Part shown: piece after piece, positions 18,150 through 61,634 of the stretch
Numbering within the stretch: position 1 is the first letter of the stretch
Layout: each line of letters begins with the position of its first letter
From: Escherichia coli O127:H6 str. E2348/69
GTDB lineage: Bacteria; Pseudomonadota; Gammaproteobacteria; Enterobacterales; Enterobacteriaceae
NCBI RefSeq assembly: GCF_000026545.1
Contig: NC_011601.1
Direction: 5' to 3' (one strand)
Length of the DNA: 64,000 bases
The notes under the pieces: model-generated
Database searches by the model: none
Seen by the model: the letters and a program-made list of their open reading frames with translations, nothing else
Told to the model about the DNA's origin: nothing
Position numbers and translations under genes: made by a program

Positions 18150-18393
18150 ACTCTTTCTCCTTTGAGGGGCAGCCACAAAAAAAATCGATGGATTATACCT
18201 CCTTTCTTCAAGGCGGCAATATTATTTTCGTTGACTTTAGTCAAAATGATAACGGTTTGAGATAAAGTTATTTTATATTCAAATGGTTATGGAAGAAGAT
18301 TATTCCATCCGAAAACGATCCTTTGCCCTGGTACAAGTATTCTTTCGCCGCGCGCCTGGGGAAAAGACGTGCAAAAAGGTTGTGTAAAGCAGT

Positions 18394-30350: not shown

Positions 30351-31358
30351 ATGAAAAAAACGATATCAATTTCTTTGTTTATCATCATAGCTTGCACGTT
30401 AGCAGGAACAGCGTCTGAGGATGTTGCAAAAGAAAAACAGTACGTTAGTGTTAATGTCCAGAAAGCAGACATAAAAATTCAGTACAAATATTCACTACTT
30501 GAAGACCGGGTAATTGAGCTTAATAGAACTGGTCTTAACAAAATATTTTCATTTTCAAGGCTTTACAAAAATTTTTCTTGGAAGTATACAGATTTTCCCA
30601 GTGGCAGACTGGATGGGTTAACGACAGTTCAAACATTCGACACGGACATCATTGGACCAATTATGGTCAGCGCAGAAAGTAATGAAGATGGTGATGATCC
30701 AATAGCTGAGTTCACAGGTGGCTGGCATGGGTTTAATGGGAACCAGAGTGGCTCTCCTACAGCCAGGCATGTTTCTCTTCAGGTATGGGTAGATGGGAAG
30801 ATGGTCAATGATACATTTAAGGGGTATACAAATGATTTAGTGATAGAAACCACGTCTAACATACAGGGCTTTAACACCAAAAAGAAAGATGGTTCTGGTA
30901 GAGAGATTATTCAACAGAAAGTAAAAATGAAATTTAATGAAGGACGTGCAGATGTGCATATCAAAATGGTTCCCCTTGAAAAGGTGAGGATACACACTTA
31001 CTACGGACTACAAACTGCACTTTCCCAACTGTATGCTAATAGTTCAATTCGTTATGAATCAGGTGACTCTCAAGAATGGAAAGACACCTCCAGCGGACCA
31101 AATGATAGTGGCCCTAAGGGTAAATATCCAAATGTTTACCGCATGACTGCAAAGAACAAACATAATGATGAAGTTGTGGTATGGTTAGACACTAAATACG
31201 GATTAGGGAAAAGATTAAATGTGAGTGATAAGTATCCTTCTGCTTTCTTTGTTGGATATAAAAGTTACTTCAATTTAATAAATGGTATTCCTTTAATTAT
31301 TTCTACAGGACAATCGGCGGAAGTTCACGGAGGCTTAGAGTGGATAAGATCAAATTAA
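30351..31358 (+). CDS. Cargo lipoprotein of unknown function (335 aa)
   Basis: MKKTISISLFIIIA|C signal/lipobox. Very AT-rich codons. Opposite strand to the phage structural genes. Confidence 0.6.
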   Translation: MKKTISISLFIIIACTLAGTASEDVAKEKQYVSVNVQKADIKIQYKYSLLEDRVIELNRTGLNKIFSFSRLYKNFSWKYTDFPSGRLDGLTTVQTFDTDIIGPIMVSAESNEDGDDPIAEFTGGWHGFNGNQSGSPTARHVSLQVWVDGKMVNDTFKGYTNDLVIETTSNIQGFNTKKKDGSGREIIQQKVKMKFNEGRADVHIKMVPLEKVRIHTYYGLQTALSQLYANSSIRYESGDSQEWKDTSSGPNDSGPKGKYPNVYRMTAKNKHNDEVVVWLDTKYGLGKRLNVSDKYPSAFFVGYKSYFNLINGIPLIISTGQSAEVHGGLEWIRSN

Positions 31359-31451
31359 ACTACAGTGCACTTAATGGAATATAGTTGAACTATTTATAGA
31401 CCAGCCATATCAATTAAATTTTAACAAACTGAGAATTAATAAGATTAAAAT

Positions 31452-32525
31452 ATGATATTGTCATTACAGTATTTAAGAGGGATAGCGGCGATACTGGTAG
31501 TTCTTTACCATTATCGCGGTGAGTTAAATGCATCATATGCACAAAAAGGACTTGGGGATCTTCTTTTTAGCAATGGGTATATAGGTGTAGATTTATTTTT
31601 TATGGTTAGCGGGTTTGTTATCATGCTATCAACAGAAAAAGATAAATCATCTTTATCGTTTGCCATTAAAAGAATCTTTAGGCTATATCCAGTATATATA
31701 GTTTGTCTTATTTTATGCACATATCTCCTATCAAAGCCAATAGATTTAAGCTTCTATAAGTCGTTGTTTTTTATACCATTATACATGAACTCACAAGCGC
31801 CATGGTTTGGGTATTCACTGATATATACTGCATGGACTTTAATGTATGAGATTATATTTTACTTTATTTTTTCATTTTCAATGATGGCATCATGGAGATA
31901 TCGCGGGTTAATTTGCTCGGCTGTTCTTGTGGCGCTACCTTTTTTAATCGGATATTATTATAATAATAGCATTTCATTAAGTGGATATGACGCTGTAATA
32001 GCGCATACAGGTATTTATTTTTTTGACAGCGCTATCCGATTGTTGTCTTCACCTATGTTTATTGAGTTTGCAGTTGGCATATTAATTTATGAAATATACA
32101 AGAGATCACGCAATAGATTTTTTCAGTTAGTATCAACAGGAATGGTAATAATTTCTTTGTCATTGTTTATTCTATATTACATTACTGGTGTAAATGGTGG
32201 GCATGGAATAAATTCAAGCGGTATGTTTGCAGCTTTATTACTATTATCTCTTACAGTTTATGAAAAAAACCATCCAATAAAACCAATTAAATCATTAAAC
32301 TTTTTAGGTGATATTTCATATTCTCTATACCTCCCCCATCCAATAATAATACAATCAATAACAACATTGTTTTTCGTTTCAAGCATATATTCCCCAAATG
32401 GTGGGTTTGGAAATGTTTATATAATGTTGATAATTGCGTTTGCTTTATCTTCCATCCTATTCTATACAGTAGAAAAGCCTTTTGTTAATCTAGGAAGAAA
32501 GATAATTAATAAGATTCGAAGATAG
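31452..32525 (+). CDS. Acyltransferase-3 (OafA/Oac-like) integral membrane O-acyltransferase, probable O-antigen acetylase
   Basis: 357 aa with about 10 TM helices. N-terminal LRGIAAILVVLYH motif typical of the AT3 family. Position next to the tailspike as in serotype-converting phages. Confidence 0.8.
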   Translation: MILSLQYLRGIAAILVVLYHYRGELNASYAQKGLGDLLFSNGYIGVDLFFMVSGFVIMLSTEKDKSSLSFAIKRIFRLYPVYIVCLILCTYLLSKPIDLSFYKSLFFIPLYMNSQAPWFGYSLIYTAWTLMYEIIFYFIFSFSMMASWRYRGLICSAVLVALPFLIGYYYNNSISLSGYDAVIAHTGIYFFDSAIRLLSSPMFIEFAVGILIYEIYKRSRNRFFQLVSTGMVIISLSLFILYYITGVNGGHGINSSGMFAALLLLSLTVYEKNHPIKPIKSLNFLGDISYSLYLPHPIIIQSITTLFFVSSIYSPNGGFGNVYIMLIIAFALSSILFYTVEKPFVNLGRKIINKIRR

Positions 32526-32532
32526 TTTAGCT

Positions 32533-32560
32533 GCGGGGTCAATGCCCCGCTTTTTTATTT
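32533..32560 (+). terminator. Intrinsic terminator of cargo operon (overlaps tailspike stop)
   Basis: GCGGGG-6nt-CCCCGC followed by TTTTTTATTTT. Confidence 0.85.
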
Positions 32561-35242
32561 TATCCTGTAATAAGTAGATCCTACACTAAGGAACTCATAT
32601 ATTCCTTGTGATGACAATGTAGTTATAAGTGTAGGTCCATTATAAATACCGATAGTCTGACCATTGAAATTTACTGATGAAAGATCTAGTAAAACCATGC
32701 TCCTAAGAAGCGTCCCATTCAATATAGTTAGCTCTGGAAGCATTAGAGTTTTACCAGGAGATAAAGTACCGCCAAATTTTATTATATTTCTAGAATCATC
32801 AGGCCATGGTGAAGCCGAGTTAATATCAGGTATTATTAAAATCTTACCTGAGTCACGATAGTCTGATGTAGAATAGAATGTTCCTTTACCTGAAGTATGT
32901 TCGTTATCATAAATGCCAGCAGGGGCATTTGTGAGAACAGGCTGATTAAATCTAGTACCTGCGAATCTTGCAATATCAGGTGCAGAAGTAGACATCGTTA
33001 GTGTTGGTTGCCCATTACCATTAAACCCAATTGCGTTTTCGCCAATACTTGATCTAGAAAATTCATTTACATCAAAGAAACCAATATCAGTGAATCCACC
33101 TTCGCTCACTGATTCATGGCTGTTTCCGGTAAATGAAAAATTAGTAAAACGAGATGAGCATTTAAAAGCCGGTCCTGATTCTGTAGTGTGGTGCCTACCA
33201 AACTTAACACCGGTGAATGTAATGTTATCACCATTTACACAATCCATAACATTGCTGATGTACCCAGAACCTGAGTTCCAACCAATAGAACCGCCTACCC
33301 ATGAAAAACCATCAAACTCCAGAATGTCAAATATTTTACCGCCTGTAAAAGCATAGTGTGTGCAGTTTGATAACATACATGACTTCATTCTTCGGCCACG
33401 AAAACCATACTTAGTACCAAACAGATGGATATTAACAAACTGTCCGCCTTCAATTCCTTGAATGCTGCCGCCACTCAAATCTGTACCGCCTACAAATTCT
33501 TTGGTCCCATCGACTATGATGTCATTCCACAATCCGTAATGACCCAGACCTGAACCTTCTCCGCCTCCATTTCCATCTTTGAATGAGAAAGTTCGATATG
33601 TTTGCAGAACCCATAAGTTGCTTATAGTAGGGTTCTCTATGACATCTAAACTGATGCATGCTGCTGTGCGCGGATAGGTGTCATCTGGTAACTGATGCGC
33701 TCTTGATGTAAATCTGACAACTTTTGTGACGTTCGATATCTCTGACGAAGGGGTTCCATTGCATCCAGTAACTCCGGTTAATGTACAACTCCCATCAGAG
33801 TTATTAACAAGTCCTGTAGCAAAGAAAGCCCCAGAGTTAGTGCTGAATTGACAGAAGTTACTTACTGGAACACCTGCGGTGTTGTTGTCAGTCAAAGGCC
33901 ATGTAATTATATTTCCACCATTAGCCTGAAATGGATTTGATACCAGAGTAATGGTGTTGGATGTTTTGCTTATCACATCTGTATTTTCTGATCCTACATA
34001 TTGTGATAACACCAGGCGGTCTAATGAATAGCAAACATTACCAAACACAATCCCCCTTGAGTTAAGTCCAAACCTTATCTCTGGGACATTCCCCAGAGAG
34101 TTTATTACACCTTCACCTCTTATTCCTATGGATACAGGGATTCCATCAATGGCAAATGGTATTGCAACCTCTGTGATTATGTTTACTTTTGAGTTAGCTG
34201 TAACAATCAACTCTCCGTAGCCAAGACGCACTAACGAGTAAATAGCAAGTTTAATTGCTGGTGAATCATTTGTGATGCCGGGTTTCTCAATGAAATTTTT
34301 TACTTCATTGATTCGGTAGCCATTCAGAAGTCCAACGCATGCCCATTTAGTTGTTTCGACATCCGGAAATTCACCAGACGAGATGGTGTGAGGTAATGCT
34401 CCAGTCCATACGTACCATAGCCCATCAGCATAAAGACAAGCATCATTCTTAGATGAAATGGTTAAACCTGAAGAAAATTCTGCCTTTTTGACAAAAATTG
34501 ATTGTTGGTAGTCGCTATAAACTGTGCCTCCATATGAGCTACCAATTTTTTTATCACCGTTATTTGCCAGCTCAATTAAAACATCTGAAGCAGAACCAGA
34601 TTCAGGTAAAACAGCAATAGGTTTACCGCCAGAATCAAAAGCAAGTATTTTATTTGATCTATCAGCATTTGATGGTATCTGGTCAACATAATCCTCAGGA
34701 ACTCTTAAGGTTCTTTTAAATAGAGAATCTGCATAAGAAATGTTACCTTCAGCAACTCCGTCAACGTAATTTTTTGTAGCTGCATCCTGTGGTCGTGACG
34801 GGTCACGAAGATTTCGTATGTAGTTACCCAAGGCATCATAATAATTTGCAATAAAAGATGGCTTACGTAAAGAAAGGCGCAGCCAACTAATTGCCTGCTG
34901 TATCAGCATGGTCAACTTATCAAAAGCATCCTCATGCACTTCTGCGAAAAACTTACCCTGATTTCTGAGATCAGTTTCCTGGGTAACCGGTAACTCTCTG
35001 GATATCGAAATCTGATAACCATTGGCAAGAGGCGACGATAAAACAACATTCCCGCCAGTATATCCGCCAGCCCCTGTCACCGTGTAATCAGTGTCCAGTG
35101 TTAAGTCAGTGATGTTTTCGCTCAGGTCAACAACCTGCACCACCAGATCAGACTTATGAAAAATTCGGAAGGTATAAGGGAATGATGTCGTGACCCCGTT
35201 ACCTGTGTAGTCATTGTGGTCAACTTCGGTTGAAACCGTCAT
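32555..35242 (-). CDS. Tailspike (conserved N-terminal particle-binding domain + divergent beta-helix-type receptor-binding/depolymerase body)
   Basis: Start set at ATG 35242 (MTVSTEVDHNDYTGNGVTTSFPYTF) behind GGAG. 895 aa. Gly/Asn/Ser/Thr-rich repetitive body. Last structural gene. Confidence 0.85.
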   Translation of the reverse strand: MTVSTEVDHNDYTGNGVTTSFPYTFRIFHKSDLVVQVVDLSENITDLTLDTDYTVTGAGGYTGGNVVLSSPLANGYQISISRELPVTQETDLRNQGKFFAEVHEDAFDKLTMLIQQAISWLRLSLRKPSFIANYYDALGNYIRNLRDPSRPQDAATKNYVDGVAEGNISYADSLFKRTLRVPEDYVDQIPSNADRSNKILAFDSGGKPIAVLPESGSASDVLIELANNGDKKIGSSYGGTVYSDYQQSIFVKKAEFSSGLTISSKNDACLYADGLWYVWTGALPHTISSGEFPDVETTKWACVGLLNGYRINEVKNFIEKPGITNDSPAIKLAIYSLVRLGYGELIVTANSKVNIITEVAIPFAIDGIPVSIGIRGEGVINSLGNVPEIRFGLNSRGIVFGNVCYSLDRLVLSQYVGSENTDVISKTSNTITLVSNPFQANGGNIITWPLTDNNTAGVPVSNFCQFSTNSGAFFATGLVNNSDGSCTLTGVTGCNGTPSSEISNVTKVVRFTSRAHQLPDDTYPRTAACISLDVIENPTISNLWVLQTYRTFSFKDGNGGGEGSGLGHYGLWNDIIVDGTKEFVGGTDLSGGSIQGIEGGQFVNIHLFGTKYGFRGRRMKSCMLSNCTHYAFTGGKIFDILEFDGFSWVGGSIGWNSGSGYISNVMDCVNGDNITFTGVKFGRHHTTESGPAFKCSSRFTNFSFTGNSHESVSEGGFTDIGFFDVNEFSRSSIGENAIGFNGNGQPTLTMSTSAPDIARFAGTRFNQPVLTNAPAGIYDNEHTSGKGTFYSTSDYRDSGKILIIPDINSASPWPDDSRNIIKFGGTLSPGKTLMLPELTILNGTLLRSMVLLDLSSVNFNGQTIGIYNGPTLITTLSSQGIYEFLSVGSTYYRIK

Positions 35243-35308
35243 GTCATTTTCTCCAGATTGCTTTTGCGCCCGGCGCGCATGCACTCTGGATCATTCTATT
35301 ACCCAATA

Positions 35309-35322
35309 AACCTTATATGAAT
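35309..35322. promoter_or_regulatory. Half-conserved copy of the AACC-TATAT-GG motif upstream of tailspike
   Basis: AACCTTATATGAAT lies 67 bp upstream of the tailspike ATG. Compare 30216 and 60350. Confidence 0.3.
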
Positions 35323-35347
35323 CGTTTAGGTATTAATCAGTTGCTTT

Positions 35348-35364
35348 ATTACCTTACAGGTAAT
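35348..35364. promoter_or_regulatory. Repressor operator, perfect ATTACC-TTACA-GGTAAT
   Basis: Exact match to the 17-bp palindrome that clusters at the cro/cI region. Confidence 0.7.
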
Positions 35365-35401
35365 TTACATTTCATGCTGGATAGTCCTGATATCTTCTGC
35401 T

Positions 35402-35421
35402 ACTGTATGTTTTATACAGTG
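35402..35421. promoter_or_regulatory. 7-5-7 palindrome ACTGTAT-GTTTT-ATACAGT (LexA-box-like but with 9-nt CTGT/ACAG spacing)
   Basis: TACTGTATGTTTTATACAGT directly upstream of the 86-aa rightward ORF. Confidence 0.4.
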
Positions 35422-35440
35422 ATTGCATGGAGAAGAAGAG

Positions 35441-35701
35441 ATGCAACGGCAGTATCACCATCCGCTGGAAGAAGGATTTGAGGAAAGAATACACACGCCG
35501 GTAGGCGTTAGATCCCTGGTGGAGGAATCGCACCTGATGAAGTTGCTGCGGGAACTCGATAAAGATGGCTTCAATGTTGATGGGCCACTTGCTGAACTGG
35601 TTGCTCTTGTGAACTACGTCACAAGTTCTCAAATGACCATGCAGGATCTGCAAACTCATCTCGATTACTGTGCGGAACAGTTACGTAAGCAAACCACTTA
35701 A
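35441..35701 (+). CDS. Acidic 86-aa protein of unknown function, opposite strand to structural genes
   Basis: ATG at 35441 behind GGAGAAGAAGAG. Flanked by an operator upstream and hairpin + GTGACATGTCAC downstream. Confidence 0.5.
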   Translation: MQRQYHHPLEEGFEERIHTPVGVRSLVEESHLMKLLRELDKDGFNVDGPLAELVALVNYVTSSQMTMQDLQTHLDYCAEQLRKQTT

Positions 35702-35702
35702 T

Positions 35703-35730
35703 GAAAAATAAAAGGCCGCTATTGCGGCCT
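35703..35730 (-). terminator. Intrinsic terminator ending the ejection-protein operon
   Basis: Minus strand reads AGGCCGC-AATA-GCGGCCT followed by TTTTATTTTTC. Confidence 0.75.
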
Positions 35731-35731
35731 A

Positions 35732-35743
35732 GTGACATGTCAC
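35732..35743. promoter_or_regulatory. Palindrome GTGACATGTCAC (copy 1 of 3)
   Basis: Perfect 12-bp palindrome. The 15-mer GTGACATGTCACACT is identical to the copy at 56018. Confidence 0.5.
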
Positions 35744-35750
35744 ACTCATG

Positions 35751-35891
35751 CTATGACAAACCTATGTACCCTGCTATACCAGATAATATTAAAACAACTG
35801 CGACGGCAAATTCCCCATCTTCAATGATACATTTACGGTTCATTACGACAAGCGCGACAAGTGCCAACACAACAAGAATTATAACAATCAT
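35751..35891 (-). CDS. 46-aa two-helix hydrophobic peptide (unannotated small ORF)
   Basis: MIVIILVVLALVALVVMNRKCIIEDGEFAVAVVLILSGIAGYIGLS. Starts 11 nt after the 824-aa gene stop and is followed by a terminator. Confidence 0.4.
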   Translation of the reverse strand: MIVIILVVLALVALVVMNRKCIIEDGEFAVAVVLILSGIAGYIGLS

Positions 35892-35901
35892 TTTCGCATC
35901 C

Positions 35902-38376
35902 TTATTGCGGAGTAACATCCTGAGGTCGCCACCAGTATGTCTGGTTAAATTCTTTCTTCGAACGCTGCTCCATCTTACGCAGATAGCCAGGGGAAAAATA
36001 TTCTTGCATCTGATTAAAGATCATATGATCAAGCGCAGCCTTCAGGTACCAGATGTTGGCACCAGGTGTCAGACCTTTTCCAAGCTTAACCAGATCACCA
36101 CCAGTTTGCTCGCTCTTACCTTCTACCGCATTCAGTGGAATACCCTGGCCTATTTTGATAACGTCATCGACCAGGCCAGCCACCGGTCCGAGCATTGAAG
36201 CCAGTGCGCCGCTTCCGTACCGGGTGTGATCAGACAACAGGAAATCACCGTACAGGCCAAGACCGCCGCCTTTCAGCAGAGCACCAAGCCAGAATTTAGC
36301 AGCATCTTCACCGACCATATCCCGCGGATTACGGCCTGATGCCATGTCATTTAGTTGCTGAGAAAGCGCGCCAAGTATTGTCGTGCTGGCTATAAACGTC
36401 GCGATATAAGCAGCCCGCCCACCAGCAGAAGGCATACCCATAGCCCGCGACCAGTGGCGCATCACGACAGAGATCGGGAATGACTTGAACAAGAATACGC
36501 TGCGGGTTAATTCACCTTTCCATGTTCCGCGCTGAATACCTGAACCGGTAACCATCTGCTCACGCGCGCCCGGAGTTATCACAGCCATGTCAACTTCTTC
36601 GGTAACCGCTCCGAGTAACTTACGCATTGCTTCAAACTTCACGCGCTCCGGTGATCCGAGGTGCTCTACAGCAGCATCGGGTATACGCATGATGCTTTCC
36701 GGAGTCAGCATCGTATCGTTGCCTTTCCCCCAGTCCTCCTGTTGCGCCAGTTTCCACACGCTCCAGTCGGTATCGGTGATTCCTTTGCTTTTCAGTATGC
36801 GGAAATCGTCATTAGACAGGCTTTTCAGATCCGGCGTTCTGGTGACAACATCACCAAGACTGCCCATCATAGTGACACCGTAGGCACGCTTGTGCGCGTC
36901 TGACCACGCAGTTAATCCACTGGCGCGCATAACCGCAGTTGCAGCCCACCGGGAGACAGACGGTCCCATATTATCCATCGCCCAGCGGTTAACGCTGCCG
37001 AGCAGTGATTCCATAGCCAAGCCAGCACGACGAGCCCTGGCCAATTCAGTGCGATTCGTTGGGTCCATAGCTTCAAGCTGGTTACGGAATAGCTGATTCA
37101 TCGGAAGGTTGGTAACCTTCGCTGACAGGTACATGGTTCCAAGATCAGAGAACGATGACAACAGAGCAGAACCGAGACGACTGGCAACCATCCAGTTGCG
37201 GATGTTATCCGACCAGCGCGCAATATGCGGGTTTGCAACAGGCTGAGTTTTACCAGAAATAAAGTTATACAGGTTCTCAGTATTGTTTGCCTGGCGCTCT
37301 ATACTACCGGTATCCTGCGGGTTAGCCGTAGCTGTCTCTGATTTCGTCTGATCCAGCAGTGAGCGGAACACATGATCCGGGTTTGGTCCGTAGGTTTCCA
37401 CCAGCGCAATGTCTTTACTGATACCTTCCAGGTGCCCTACCATGATTTCCCAGAGTGACCGGTCGCCGTACATCTGCTGGTACTGAAGGTATGAATCAGC
37501 GTCTTTAAAGTGGATTTGGCGTGAGGCGTTGCCACGGTTTGCCCGCGCACCGGAAATACGCATACCGGTATCAGTGAGTTTATTCAGGCCACCTGTGGCA
37601 ATCGTGTTATAGGCTTCACCGAGAAAAGCTGATAACTCAGTATCATTCATCAACTGGCCGTCGGCGCGTGTGTAATATTTGCGATCGAGTTTACCAATCA
37701 CATCACTTACCCACTTATCCTTCGATACCGCCCCAACCTTTTCCATAGAGTGGTGCTGTGGTATACCCCAGTTTTCCAGATATCCGATATCACCACCAGC
37801 ATCATTAAACCTGCGGCGCAGTAGCTCAGTAACTTCGCCCCAGGCTTTAGCCCCTTTCATGGCTTTCGCATTGCCAGTTTTCTGGCCGCGCATCTCAAAC
37901 ACCAGATCACGGACTCCGGCTTCATCTTCAAACAGACCGAAGAAACGAGGATCAACAGCCTCGAATACCTCCTGTAACTGGCTTAATGCGTAATCACGGG
38001 TCGCTTTCGTGCGTGACTCAACAGACAGAAAGTTTGATTTACCGTCAGCGCTGAAGGCGATCGTGCGGTTGAGTGCGCCTAGCTTTCCGTCAGCACCCTG
38101 ATAACTGTTAATGAAGTTGTCCAGGCGCTGACGCGCTGCGATGGTAAGCGCGACACGGCGTTTTTTCAGTGCCACCTCTCGCTGCAACTCTTCAGCCGCC
38201 AGTTGCCCGGCTCGGCGCAGGCGTTCAGCGTCGTTAAGTTGACGCCATGACATCGGATCGTCACGGGCAATAGATCGCATATTGCGGTAAATGCGGTCTT
38301 CGATATTCTGTATTTCTCGGGCTGTAAGAGTGCGCTGTGCTGCCTGTTGCACGGCCTGAATACATTCCTGTCTCAT
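35902..38376 (-). CDS. Ejection/internal core protein (824 aa)
   Basis: Third of three giant genes between the tail tube and the tailspike. Position equals T7 gp16 / epsilon15 core proteins. No enzymatic motif recognised. Confidence 0.6.
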   Translation of the reverse strand: MRQECIQAVQQAAQRTLTAREIQNIEDRIYRNMRSIARDDPMSWRQLNDAERLRRAGQLAAEELQREVALKKRRVALTIAARQRLDNFINSYQGADGKLGALNRTIAFSADGKSNFLSVESRTKATRDYALSQLQEVFEAVDPRFFGLFEDEAGVRDLVFEMRGQKTGNAKAMKGAKAWGEVTELLRRRFNDAGGDIGYLENWGIPQHHSMEKVGAVSKDKWVSDVIGKLDRKYYTRADGQLMNDTELSAFLGEAYNTIATGGLNKLTDTGMRISGARANRGNASRQIHFKDADSYLQYQQMYGDRSLWEIMVGHLEGISKDIALVETYGPNPDHVFRSLLDQTKSETATANPQDTGSIERQANNTENLYNFISGKTQPVANPHIARWSDNIRNWMVASRLGSALLSSFSDLGTMYLSAKVTNLPMNQLFRNQLEAMDPTNRTELARARRAGLAMESLLGSVNRWAMDNMGPSVSRWAATAVMRASGLTAWSDAHKRAYGVTMMGSLGDVVTRTPDLKSLSNDDFRILKSKGITDTDWSVWKLAQQEDWGKGNDTMLTPESIMRIPDAAVEHLGSPERVKFEAMRKLLGAVTEEVDMAVITPGAREQMVTGSGIQRGTWKGELTRSVFLFKSFPISVVMRHWSRAMGMPSAGGRAAYIATFIASTTILGALSQQLNDMASGRNPRDMVGEDAAKFWLGALLKGGGLGLYGDFLLSDHTRYGSGALASMLGPVAGLVDDVIKIGQGIPLNAVEGKSEQTGGDLVKLGKGLTPGANIWYLKAALDHMIFNQMQEYFSPGYLRKMEQRSKKEFNQTYWWRPQDVTPQ

Positions 38377-52593: not shown

Positions 52594-52610
52594 ATTACCT
52601 TTTAGGTAAT
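52594..52610. promoter_or_regulatory. Repressor operator, perfect ATTACC-TTTTA-GGTAAT, at 5' edge of the RNA island
   Basis: Exact 17-bp operator palindrome. TTGACA at 52573-52578 lies upstream but no good -10 is visible. Confidence 0.7.
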
Positions 52611-53055: not shown

Positions 53056-53169
53056 GTTGTGGTTAGCTCAGATAGGTTAGAGCTCCATCCATGCTTGCCA
53101 TTGCTGCATGGGCGGGGAATGGGTTCCGAAAGGATCGCCGCGCAGGTTCGAATCCTGCACCACAACCCA
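53056..53169 (+). ncRNA. tRNA-like module (114 nt) with encoded CCA; canonical acceptor, D and T arms but no canonical anticodon loop
   Basis: G-1 + TTGTGGT pairs with ACCACAA + C73, then CCA. D arm is GCTC-AGATAGGTTA-GAGC. T arm is GCAGG-TTCGAAT-CCTGC. 57 nt lie between D and T stems, where a class I tRNA has about 23. Confidence 0.6.
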
Positions 53170-55922: not shown

Positions 55923-55941
55923 TGTTACCACCGAAGTAATA

Positions 55942-55958
55942 ATTACCGTTTTGGTAAT
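55942..55958. promoter_or_regulatory. Repressor operator, perfect ATTACC-GTTTT-GGTAAT, 20 bp upstream of terS
   Basis: Exact operator palindrome between the early-operon terminator and terS. Confidence 0.7.
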
Positions 55959-58367: not shown

Positions 58368-58431
58368 GATTTACCTCTCAGGTAATTTAAAACCACAAAC
58401 GAGTTAATTTCAATAGCAATGCGCATATTTT

Positions 58432-58448
58432 ATTACCTTTTTGGTAAT
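58432..58448. promoter_or_regulatory. Repressor operator, perfect ATTACC-TTTTT-GGTAAT, inside the early operon
   Basis: Lies between the P-like gene stop (58485) and the nuclease gene start (58367). Confidence 0.7.
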
Positions 58449-58484: not shown

Positions 58485-59270
58485 TTACTTGATGAGTCCC
58501 GCTGCCTTCCCTCGTCTGTATTCCTCCATAAGCCACTGTGCCGGTGTTATCCCTCCCAGGGTGGCTGCGTTCGGCATGCATCCGAAACTTCGCCCTGGTG
58601 GATGATAGGCGTTACCTGAGCCTGTTGGTGGTGTGCTCATTGGTTCTGGCTTGGCCTGTATGCTGAGTATTGGATCTGGAATCTGGTGACCGGATGCCAC
58701 TTTTGCCGACCATTCATCCAGCAGCTTTCGCGCATGCTTCTCGACTTCAGCCTCACTCAGTTGTCGCTGATACATCGCCCTGCGGGTATCACACACAATC
58801 CAGTACATGACCGGGTGGCGCCACGGGAATCTCTCGGGTCCACCAGGCTGGAGGCTTTTCTCTTTGGCGTAACGGTGAAACTCACCCATCACGTCTTCGA
58901 TGCTGATTCCCAGCACCATCTTGCTGTCTTTGCACCACTTGATGAATTGCCCAGGCGAAGGCCAGAACGGTGATTCACTGGCGCGGGCATGGCGCATTCC
59001 TGCCGATACCTGCTCACGGGTACGAACACCACCTTCAGCGAATGCAGCGATCCACTGCTGTTTTGCCGCTGTCTCCTGTGCCGGAGTCTTCAGGTTGGTC
59101 TGTTCTGCTGCCGGGAATAGCTGCTTAAGCTGTTTAAACAGGGCATCCACAAGTCGCTCTGCCGTAATGTTCACAACGTTGTCGCTACCTGCATACTGAC
59201 GGTCTGATCCGGTTAATTGGGCCATAGCCTCAGCGTCTCGGTTCTGGATGGCGGTAAATACGTTATTCAC
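58485..59270 (-). CDS. Lambda P-like replicative helicase loader (GTG start)
   Basis: Central ..QQWIAAFAEGGVRTREQVSAGMRHARASESPFWPSPGQFIKWC aligns by eye with lambda P ..RRQWVLAFRENGITTMEQVNAGMRVARRQNRPFLPSPGQFVAWC. GTGA overlap with the O-like stop behind GGAGG. Confidence 0.8.
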   Translation of the reverse strand: MNNVFTAIQNRDAEAMAQLTGSDRQYAGSDNVVNITAERLVDALFKQLKQLFPAAEQTNLKTPAQETAAKQQWIAAFAEGGVRTREQVSAGMRHARASESPFWPSPGQFIKWCKDSKMVLGISIEDVMGEFHRYAKEKSLQPGGPERFPWRHPVMYWIVCDTRRAMYQRQLSEAEVEKHARKLLDEWSAKVASGHQIPDPILSIQAKPEPMSTPPTGSGNAYHPPGRSFGCMPNAATLGGITPAQWLMEEYRRGKAAGLIK

Positions 59271-60073
59271 AGGAAATCCTCCCACGCCTCTGGACTGTTC
59301 CAGTGCGGTACGTTGTTTTCAGGTGAGGTCAGTTTGTTCTGTCTGCTGATCTGCAGACGTCTGGCAAGTTTTTGCTCCCATTGCGCATGGTGGAAAGCCT
59401 TACCCTCGGCCATCCAGTAAACCCTGAACTCTGCAAGCTCCTGCGGTGTTGGCTGGCAATCCAGGTTAATACCCTGCAGAGATGACACCCGGAGAAAATC
59501 ATCCGATGGTGACCAGAGCTCATGCATGACAAATTTCCCGAATTGCCCAAGTCCACCAGGAGGGACAAAGTTGTTAATTACGGCGTTGTTGGCGTCAGGT
59601 TCAGGCGGTACTAAACCACCAGTTTTATCGCCCCTCTCCTTCTCTTGGTTATATGACTGGTTAACTGATAGGTTCTGCATCCCGTTTTTGGGATCATTCA
59701 ACTTCCCGTTTTTGGGATCATTCAACTTCCCGTTTTTGGGTATACTCCCAATTTTGGTAACATTACCGTTTTTGGGTATACTCCCAATTTTGGTAACATT
59801 ACCGTTTTTGGGTATGTTTAAAGAGAAAACCCGGACCCTTCTTGTTGCCCCTTTTCTTTCTCCTGTATCTGAAATTAACCCCATACCGATGAGCGAAATC
59901 AGCCCTGCCTGAACCGTTTTTTTATTCAGGCTTGTGTCGGTAACCAGGCGTTCGATGCTTGGATAACACAGGTTATATTCATCGGCTCGATCAGCCATCG
60001 AGAGCAGGATGAGTTTCAGTGATGAGCTGCCCGGATTTGTTTTCCATGCCCACTCTGTTGCGTGTCTGCTCAT
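59267..60073 (-). CDS. Replication initiator (O-like; N-terminal winged-HTH, internal iteron-encoded repeats, DnaT-like C-terminus)
   Basis: 268 aa. The peptide repeats PKNGNVTKIGSI x2 and PKNGKLND x2 are encoded by the ori iterons. Sits upstream of the P-like gene. Confidence 0.75.
   Translation of the reverse strand: MSRHATEWAWKTNPGSSSLKLILLSMADRADEYNLCYPSIERLVTDTSLNKKTVQAGLISLIGMGLISDTGERKGATRRVRVFSLNIPKNGNVTKIGSIPKNGNVTKIGSIPKNGKLNDPKNGKLNDPKNGMQNLSVNQSYNQEKERGDKTGGLVPPEPDANNAVINNFVPPGGLGQFGKFVMHELWSPSDDFLRVSSLQGINLDCQPTPQELAEFRVYWMAEGKAFHHAQWEQKLARRLQISRQNKLTSPENNVPHWNSPEAWEDFL
59681..59813. repeat. Origin of replication iterons inside the O-like gene
   Basis: CCCGTTTTTGGG(A/T) at 59681, 59705 and 59729 (24-bp period). 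Then CCCAATTTTGGTA / ACCGTTTTTGGGT alternating at 59747, 59765, 59783 and 59801 (18-bp period). Confidence 0.75.
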
Positions 60074-60708: not shown

Positions 60709-60772
60709 ATTACCTTTCTGGTGAAAAAATCAATGATTATTACCATTATGGTAACTTTACCTTTATGGTAAT
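60709..60772. promoter_or_regulatory. Right operator cluster (three sites) with divergent cro and cI promoters
   Basis: ATTACC-TTTCT-GGTGAA (60709-25), ATTACC-ATTAT-GGTAAC (60739-55), TTTACC-TTTAT-GGTAAT (60756-72). Leftward promoter candidate: -35 TTGATT (60728-33), -10 AATAAT (60706-11), 16-nt spacer. Confidence 0.7.
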
Positions 60773-60825: not shown

Positions 60826-61422
60826 ATGAAAAGTATTTATGACATAAGACGCAAAAACCTTAACGAAATCATTCGCCGGGATTTCGATGACACCCAGTTA
60901 CGCTTTGCAGAACGGGTGAAGCGTTCGCAGAACCTGGTCAACAGGTGGTGTACTGGTATCAAAAATATCGGACCTAATGCCGCGCGTATCATCGAAGAAG
61001 CAGCCCGCAAAGAAAAGTTCTGGCTTGATGTCGATCACGAACTGGACGCAGTACAGGATGATATCTTTATTCCGGCCACTGAAGATGGAGAATGGACTGT
61101 AGAGAAGCAGGCCGCCGCCACGCTCAATGCCTGGATGAGAAAGAACAGTGAAATGACATCCGAAAAGAAAGTTGCTGTTGCAGCTGGCATTGGACCTGCC
61201 ACCGTTAACCGCATCATGAAAGCGGAAGTCAGCACAACCATCGGCGTTCTTTCCTCCCTGGCGCGCGCGTTCGGGCATGAAGCATACGAGATGATTATTC
61301 CCGTCGGCTCACCTGGTGTTATCGACTATGACCACCGGATGTATGCAGCCCTGCCACAGGAAGAGAAAAACAAGATCACCTCATTCATCAACTTCGTGTT
61401 TGAGCAGAACAAAAGCAAGTAA
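60826..61422 (+). CDS. Prophage maintenance repressor (CI-like) with two HTH_3/XRE-type domains and no S24 peptidase domain
   Basis: 198 aa. HTH 1 is TQLRFAERVKRSQNLVNRWCTG. HTH 2 is SEKKVAVAAGIGPATVNRIMKAE. Divergent from cro across the operators. No Ala-Gly/Ser-Lys autocleavage module. Confidence 0.7.
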   Translation: MKSIYDIRRKNLNEIIRRDFDDTQLRFAERVKRSQNLVNRWCTGIKNIGPNAARIIEEAARKEKFWLDVDHELDAVQDDIFIPATEDGEWTVEKQAAATLNAWMRKNSEMTSEKKVAVAAGIGPATVNRIMKAEVSTTIGVLSSLARAFGHEAYEMIIPVGSPGVIDYDHRMYAALPQEEKNKITSFINFVFEQNKSK

Positions 61423-61479: not shown

Positions 61480-61634
61480 ATTACCAAAATGGTAATTTTT
61501 TCTCGTCATACCTATTGACACAATCACTTTTTGATCTGATTATTACCTAAAAGGTAATACAAGAGCGCATTGCTCAGGCAGAAACCACCACTTCGTGGCT
61601 TTCCTGTATCTACTAGTATTACCAAAATGGTAAT
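61480..61634. promoter_or_regulatory. Left operator cluster (three perfect sites) with rightward PL-like promoter
   Basis: ATTACC-AAAAT-GGTAAT (61480-96), ATTACC-TAAAA-GGTAAT (61542-58), ATTACC-AAAAT-GGTAAT (61618-34). -35 TTGACA at 61515-20, -10 GATTAT at 61538-43. Confidence 0.7.

Follow-up and report, generated by a model that had tools for sequence, protein, structure and literature searches.

A probable Ant-Rep antirepression switch in an epsilon15/SPC32H-type prophage of Escherichia coli E2348/69, with an apparent one-base insertion in its SOS box

The stretch of DNA considered here (the window: 64,000 nucleotides from the reference lineage of Escherichia coli O127:H6 E2348/69) is taken up for about 60% of its length by a prophage of the epsilon15/SPC32H type (Uetakevirus), 40 kb long and integrated next to guaA. 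Its integrase, recombination, replication, packaging, structural and lysis genes have all been found, giving it the look of an intact phage. Between two of its leftward genes, one a structural open reading frame (ORF) of 824 amino acids (aa; 35902-38376, minus strand) and the other the tailspike gene (32555-35242, minus strand; 895 aa counted from its ATG), lies a small gene, ant, that runs against them and is preceded by a repressor operator and an SOS (LexA) box. The tailspike gene is annotated "tail fiber/spike domain-containing protein", with a weak Pfam match to Tail_spike_N. Judged by homology, the locus is very probably one half of the Ant-Rep antirepression switch of this prophage, the other half being the gene of the repressor, rep. 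What singles out the E2348/69 copy is one extra T in the SOS box, which is probably real and, if so, bears on how the switch is thrown.

The ant gene (35441-35701, plus strand, stop codon included) is read from a GGAG ribosome-binding site (35430-35433, plus strand) that can be recognized directly in the sequence 7 nucleotides (nt) before the ATG and is invariant or nearly so among 61 unique upstream sequences of relatives. Its 86-aa product is net acidic, with 14 Asp and Glu residues against 8 Lys and Arg, and is identical at 85 of 86 positions to chain E, "Anti-repressor protein", of PDB entry 5D50 (E 2e-54); it also matches phrog_450 (E 2.5e-46). The surrounding DNA (35250-35950) is 93.7% identical to that of Salmonella phage SPC32H (KC911856), in which the homologous gene is annotated ant (SPC32H_020). 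A Pfam scan of Ant returned sub-threshold noise only, and no antirepressor domain.

Several further observations attach to this gene. Residues 26-76 of Ant, its C-terminal two thirds (encoded within window 35441-35698), match the C-terminal end of PHROG 1760, "anti-repressor" (positions 175-225 of 232, E = 1.2e-7), which suggests that the Ant fold may also occur as a domain of larger antirepressors. A 95-aa ORF lies antisense to ant at 35372-35659 (minus strand), with a counterpart at 616-909 of the related locus L004; the record of phage VB_ST_SPNIS2 (OR757456) annotates this antisense ORF in place of ant, probably a mis-annotation. In some prophages whose Ant is identical to that of the window (L099, L101, L106 and L108), the interval between ant and the structural operon contains, about 320 nt after ant, an inserted gene of 229 aa with a Bro-N domain and sometimes a DUF2335 gene as well.

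The presumed target of Ant, the 198-aa repressor Rep, is encoded at 60826-61422 (plus strand). It is identical at 192 of 198 positions to chain A, "Repressor", of the same PDB entry 5D50 (E 5e-127); Pfam finds HTH_3 only in it, and no self-cleavage domain of the peptidase S24 type. A perfect palindrome of the form ATTACC-N5-GGTAAT, ATTACCTTACAGGTAAT, is located upstream of ant at 35348-35364, and the homologous site in epsilon15 (AY150271.2) is annotated "protein_bind repressor, lysogeny". With up to one mismatch allowed, the window has ten sites of this pattern where shuffled sequences lead one to expect 0.13, and each of them is inside the prophage: two adjacent sites lie between a cro-like gene and rep (60739-60772), and others at 52594, 55942, 58370, 58432, 61480, 61542 and 61618. 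Taken as clusters (52594-52610, 55924-55958, 58370-58448, 60709-60772 and 61480-61634), the operators head almost all transcription units of the prophage, one pair being placed within the opening codons of the gene for the small terminase, and the epsilon15 record annotates equivalent sites at the heads of its other transcription units. Those at 52594, 58370 and 61542 overlap the -10 element or the start region of strong predicted promoters. With operators heading nearly every unit, and several of them over a -10 element, Rep therefore appears to silence the late and structural units directly.

A sequence-only reading of this DNA, made earlier, had pointed to the perfect operator at 35348-35364, to a rightward acidic ORF of 86 aa opposing the structural operon, and to a repressor of 198 aa without a cleavable peptidase domain; it had gone on to propose, as speculation, that the ORF encodes an antirepressor, set behind an SOS-type site and directed against the uncleavable repressor. 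All of this was right, the operator to the base. It is also already known: the antirepressor, the repressor, their complex and the control by LexA have been published, or crystallized, for the near-identical locus of SPC32H.

The SOS box requires a closer look. It extends over 35401-35420 as the 20-bp palindrome TACTGTATGTTTTATACAGT, that is, TACTGTATG-TTTT-ATACAGT, or CTGT-N9-ACAG; the sequence-only reading had its arms and its spacing of nine correctly but placed it one base too far to the right, at 35402-35421. Patterns of the type CTGT-N9-ACAG are no rarer in the 64 kb than chance would have them (one found, 0.98 expected), and it is accordingly homology, and not statistics, that gives this site its weight. 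Nowhere in the window is there a CTGT-N8-ACAG. In the five phage records that can be aligned, the box reads TACTGTATG-TTT-ATACAGT, or TACTGTATGTTTATACAGT, with the canonical CTGT-N8-ACAG; the same arms at the N8 spacing are found in another three E. coli prophages and in two genomes of Citrobacter. The run of Ts at 35410-35413 is thus one T longer than in these other copies, and the spacing of nine, true as it is of the window, is not shared by its relatives.

How strictly that spacing is kept emerges from a survey of 80 IMG/VR loci with Ant homologues at 85-100% identity. In 77 of them CTG-N10-CAG stands upstream of the ATG at a distance of 36-41 nt. Its arms and its N8 spacing do not vary, but its centre does (ATGTTTAT, ATAAATAT, ATATTTAT, ATAAACAT and others). 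Two of the remaining three have a degenerate left arm; the third, L017, has the +1 spacing and agrees with the window at every position over 3,258 nt. When all of IMG/VR was scanned for exact occurrences of the box in the context of ant, at least 120 contigs had the N8 spacing, a single one (again L017) the +1 spacing and none the -1 spacing; a metagenome collection yielded no +1 variant. Spacing is therefore under strict constraint among the relatives, in which the box is, by this token, probably functional. As judged from the alignments, the N9 spacing is a one-base insertion peculiar to the E2348/69 reference lineage.

The E. coli LexA box, TACTGTATATATATACAGTA, sets CTG and CAG 10 bp apart; in the window these arms are 11 bp apart and never both in register. 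Against the 20-nt LexA consensus the window copy matches at 10 of 20 positions, and at 17 once a T is removed to restore the ancestral form. For comparison, the box of SPC32N, a lytic variant of SPC32H, matches at 16: the two phages differ at two positions in an aligned stretch of 246 nt, and one of these is a C to A change in the right CAG of the box. This agrees with the abstract of Kim and Ryu (2013), according to which SPC32H and SPC32N reportedly differ by two nucleotides, one of them in the LexA site over the ant promoter, with constitutive production of Ant as the outcome. The non-canonical box lowers confidence in LexA control of the window copy; it does not lower confidence that the locus belongs to this family by descent.

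Promoters were sought with a simple σ70 position-weight matrix, and its hits are predictions. The best rightward match beside ant (35378-35406, plus strand; score 7.75) joins a -35 element, TGGATA (35378-83), across a 17-nt spacer to a -10 element, TACTGT (35401-06), that is preceded by TG (35398-99) and doubles as the SOS box's left arm. TGGATA-N14-TGnTACTGT is kept in 58 of the 61 unique upstream sequences while the sequence of the spacer drifts, as one would expect if the promoter is real. Other candidates for an ant promoter were discarded: -10 elements TATACA, TATGTT and TACAGT, paired with different -35 hexamers, and TTTACA at 35364, have no acceptable or conserved partner hexamer. Leftward, the matrix predicts a tailspike promoter (35293-35321, minus strand; score 10.57) with TTCATA (35321-16) as -35, a 17-nt spacer and TAGAAT (35298-93) as -10, both hexamers being nearly invariant among relatives. 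Transcription of ant is predicted to begin near 35412-35414, and that of the tailspike gene near 35286. The operator at 35348-35364 sits between these two divergent promoters without reaching into the core of either, its distance from the predicted ant -35 being 13 bp and from the tailspike -35, which it likewise precedes, 26 bp. An arrangement like that at 52594, where TACCTT within the operator serves as -10, was also considered for this site and rejected, the matching -35 being weak and not conserved. In 65 of the 80 relatives an operator fitting the strict pattern is found 91-96 nt before the ATG of ant.

For SPC32H the scheme of the switch has been published. An antirepressor is made after LexA has cleaved itself, and inhibits the lytic repressor by protein-protein contact (review of Kim and Ryu 2013 in PMC7380047). 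Rep binds DNA as a tetramer, one reported to be of the DNA-looping type, which is broken up by a tetramer of Ant that engages two Rep dimers (PMC9638917; PMC9986798). By analogy, Rep of the E2348/69 prophage, a helix-turn-helix repressor without a self-cleaving domain, would bind its ATTACC-N5-GGTAAT operators as a tetramer and keep the prophage silent. LexA would occupy the SOS box and so cover the -10 and the region where ant transcription starts; once DNA damage had removed LexA, Ant would be made; the Ant tetramer would then bind the C-terminal domains of Rep, break its tetramer and free it from DNA. In the reference lineage, the extra T would alter the SOS control of ant. It falls just downstream of the predicted -10 and near the predicted start, and should therefore leave the promoter core intact while putting the LexA half-sites out of register. 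The invariant half-site spacing of E. coli SOS boxes is reported to have been explained, by Zhang, Pigli and Rice (2010, Nature), through wing-wing contacts between the LexA DNA-binding domains. Since the spacing is invariant and these domains touch, binding of LexA to the window copy has presumably been lost or strongly weakened.

Is the extra T real? Over 42 kb the window is 100% identical to LT827011 and to its engineered derivative LT903847, both of them E2348/69 assemblies. An independent E2348/69 assembly, CP059840.2, departs from the window at four places in 64 kb: a single-nucleotide difference in host DNA at 18189; a G/A substitution in the tailspike gene at 33828 (A486V: Ala486 in the window, Val in CP059840.2); the extra T at 35410-35413; and, at 59679, a 24-nt tandem repeat unit (eight codons, in frame) of which the window has one copy fewer, in a DnaT-like replication gene (59267-60073, minus strand). 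That three of the four fall in the prophage is uninformative, given its share of the window. The ENA assembly ERZ761559 carries the CP059840.2 allele at 33828.

The extra T is probably real in the reference lineage, and what weighs against this should be set out together. TTT is what four assemblies of the same prophage have (CP059840.2, ERZ761559, and Logan SRR31768884 and SRR1554980); the additional T is confined to the lineage derived from NC_011601, that is, to LT827011, LT903847 and a contig in IMG/VR that matches the window at 100% identity. The two LT assemblies were made from more than 100x Illumina coverage, de novo as well as guided on NC_011601 (PMC5685641), and because of that guidance their independence from the original reference is only partial. 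Finally, an ant promoter blind to LexA should destabilize lysogeny, as is reported for SPC32N, yet the prophage is stably integrated. These are the observations to be expected if the T were a homopolymer error of the original E2348/69 reference, passed on to the assemblies that it guided: the real box would then be canonical, its behaviour would resemble that of SPC32H, and a stable lysogen would be predicted, as is seen. An error of this kind is unlikely, if well short of far-fetched. Four differences from CP059840.2 in 64 kb are too few to suggest that the assembly was prone to error; the substitution at 33828, by which the window differs from ERZ761559 as well, points to a lineage that is truly distinct; and at that depth of Illumina coverage, with de novo assembly, an indel should have been corrected.

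The conflict between a broken box and a stable prophage thus has three possible ways out: an error in the sequence, residual binding of LexA, or a second lock on ant. Were the T real, LexA binding abolished and the lysogen stable, a lock independent of LexA would have to exist, and the likeliest would be Rep itself, repressing ant from the operator at 35348-35364, alone or bridged by its tetramer, so that Rep and Ant would form a feedback loop: dual control, with Rep dominant. For this it can be said that the operator keeps a fixed distance from ant in the relatives and lies only those 13 bp upstream of the predicted -35, that Rep is reported to be a tetramer of the looping type, and that the prophage has stayed in place in spite of its box. 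Such a lock is nevertheless rather doubtful: other Rep operators overlap the -10 or the start region of the promoters that they would control, which this one does not, and SPC32N has the same operator, yet a point mutation in its box is reported, in the abstract of Kim and Ryu, to suffice for constitutive Ant. "Dual operator control" of ant, as the sequence-only reading had it, is therefore possible, and a role of the operator in tailspike control or as an anchor for the Rep tetramer would be at least as likely, and is more probable than that of a classical ant operator. It may even have nothing to do with ant and serve only a separate leftward tailspike promoter, a reading given a little less than an even chance. 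The tailspike would need a promoter of its own because the inverted ant and the terminator described next cut it off from the structural operon; the predicted promoter at 35321-35293 is strong (score 10.6) and conserved, operators head other transcription units in this prophage and in epsilon15, and at 35298-35303 an ATTACC half-site that does not vary lies directly against the tailspike -10. Against it counts the separation of the operator from the tailspike -35, which speaks against direct occlusion of this promoter too.

The terminator in question is a GC-rich hairpin after ant (35713-35730), annotated as rho-independent in epsilon15; it ends the leftward structural operon, because a U tract follows only on the minus-strand transcript. 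Between it and the 824-aa gene lies a small hydrophobic ORF (35751-35918, minus strand; listed with 55 aa, or 46 aa from the start used in SPC32H), which matches phrog_7892, goes by "putative integral membrane protein" in the SPC32H record and is not called by RefSeq in E2348/69. On the other side of the tailspike gene, towards the lysis cassette, two rightward cargo genes (30351-32525, plus strand) encode a 335-aa protein with a signal-like N-terminus, its function not recognized, and a 357-aa protein of the Acyl_transf_3 family; they are probably O-antigen modification genes, differing from the conversion genes of SPC32H and epsilon15. Between terminase and portal genes (about 53056-53168) PGAP places a pseudogenic tRNA-Gly, where ARAGORN finds no tRNA. 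Past the right end of the window, the same prophage in CP059840.2 (L232, 7601-7900) encodes a transcriptional regulator of the PerC family, which could be of interest in an enteropathogenic E. coli (EPEC) strain that employs PerC in its virulence regulon.

What remains of interest, in a system otherwise known, is a +1 insertion, apparently unique, that lies in the SOS box controlling prophage induction in a major model pathogen. Literature searches on induction of the epsilon15-like prophage of E2348/69 brought up nothing relevant. Stocks of this strain appear to differ by one base in the box; if the difference is real, spontaneous release of phage and SOS-dependent lysis could differ between laboratories, and the TTT/TTTT pair would be a ready-made test of how strict LexA is about half-site spacing and of whether Rep has a hold on ant. 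Should the second lock exist after all, the most widely used EPEC strain would be a natural mutant in which the LexA and Rep controls are separated, its prophage being either uninducible by the SOS response or chronically leaky by comparison with that of other E2348/69 stocks. On a more practical level, RefSeq carries ant and rep of E2348/69 as "hypothetical protein" or as a generic helix-turn-helix protein, and both can now be named.

How does this locus compare with others? The sequence-only reading had called it immI-like, after the mnt-arc-ant region of P22. The likeness holds for the position on the map (both lie between ejection genes and tailspike, and both encode an antirepressor) and is refuted at the level of sequence. 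BLASTP aligns P22 Ant with Ant of the window over 20 residues only (E = 0.15) and P22 Arc not at all; no arc or mnt ORF is present at 35243-35901, an Rfam scan for a sar-like antisense RNA gave no match, and the absence of a Pfam antirepressor domain has already been mentioned. That the module is a reduced homologue of immI is accordingly improbable in the extreme. The controls differ as well, the window locus being ascribed to LexA and Rep and immI to Arc and Mnt, and P22 Ant is not an SOS route of induction (PMC7380047).

In their logic, the antirepressors of 186 (Tum), Gifsy-1, Gifsy-3 and Fels-2 are closer: these, too, combine a non-cleavable repressor with an antirepressor placed behind an SOS box (PMC7380047). 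Neither PHROG nor Pfam assigns Ant of the window to the Tum type or to any other recognized family of antirepressors, the weak C-terminal match to phrog_1760 excepted, and no direct comparison with Tum or the Gifsy proteins was made. LexA-controlled antirepressors are reported for 186, Gifsy-1, Gifsy-3 and Fels-2 (Shearwin 1998; Lemire 2011), and the abstract of Kim and Ryu reportedly holds Ant to be structurally distinct from them.

The true relatives are epsilon15 and SPC32H, in both of which (AY150271 and KC911856) ant is inverted between the last genes of the structural operon and the tailspike gene, as it is in the window. In epsilon15 the homologous 86-aa gene is gp19, which has the same operator, with an IHF site next to it, and the same terminator; its record has gp19 as a "hypothetical protein" and leaves the LexA site, a box of N8 spacing, unannotated. 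SPC32H is the reference case, its Ant-Rep system reportedly due to Kim and Ryu (2013, J Virol 87:11775) and to Kim et al. (2016, PNAS 113:E2480), with structures 5D50 and 5D4Z in the PDB. The degree of identity of the two proteins has been given above; the upstream Rep operator, the position of the SOS box, the ribosome-binding site and the terminator are also alike, and so is the order of genes: 824-aa gene, small membrane protein, inverted ant, tailspike, acyltransferase. The differences are that the E2348/69 prophage resides in E. coli O127:H6 instead of Salmonella, that its tailspike and O-antigen modification genes are different, and that an extra T makes the spacing of its box N9 where SPC32H has N8. 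Every feature of the SPC32H-type switch that was looked for is present in the window save the canonical spacing of the SOS box.

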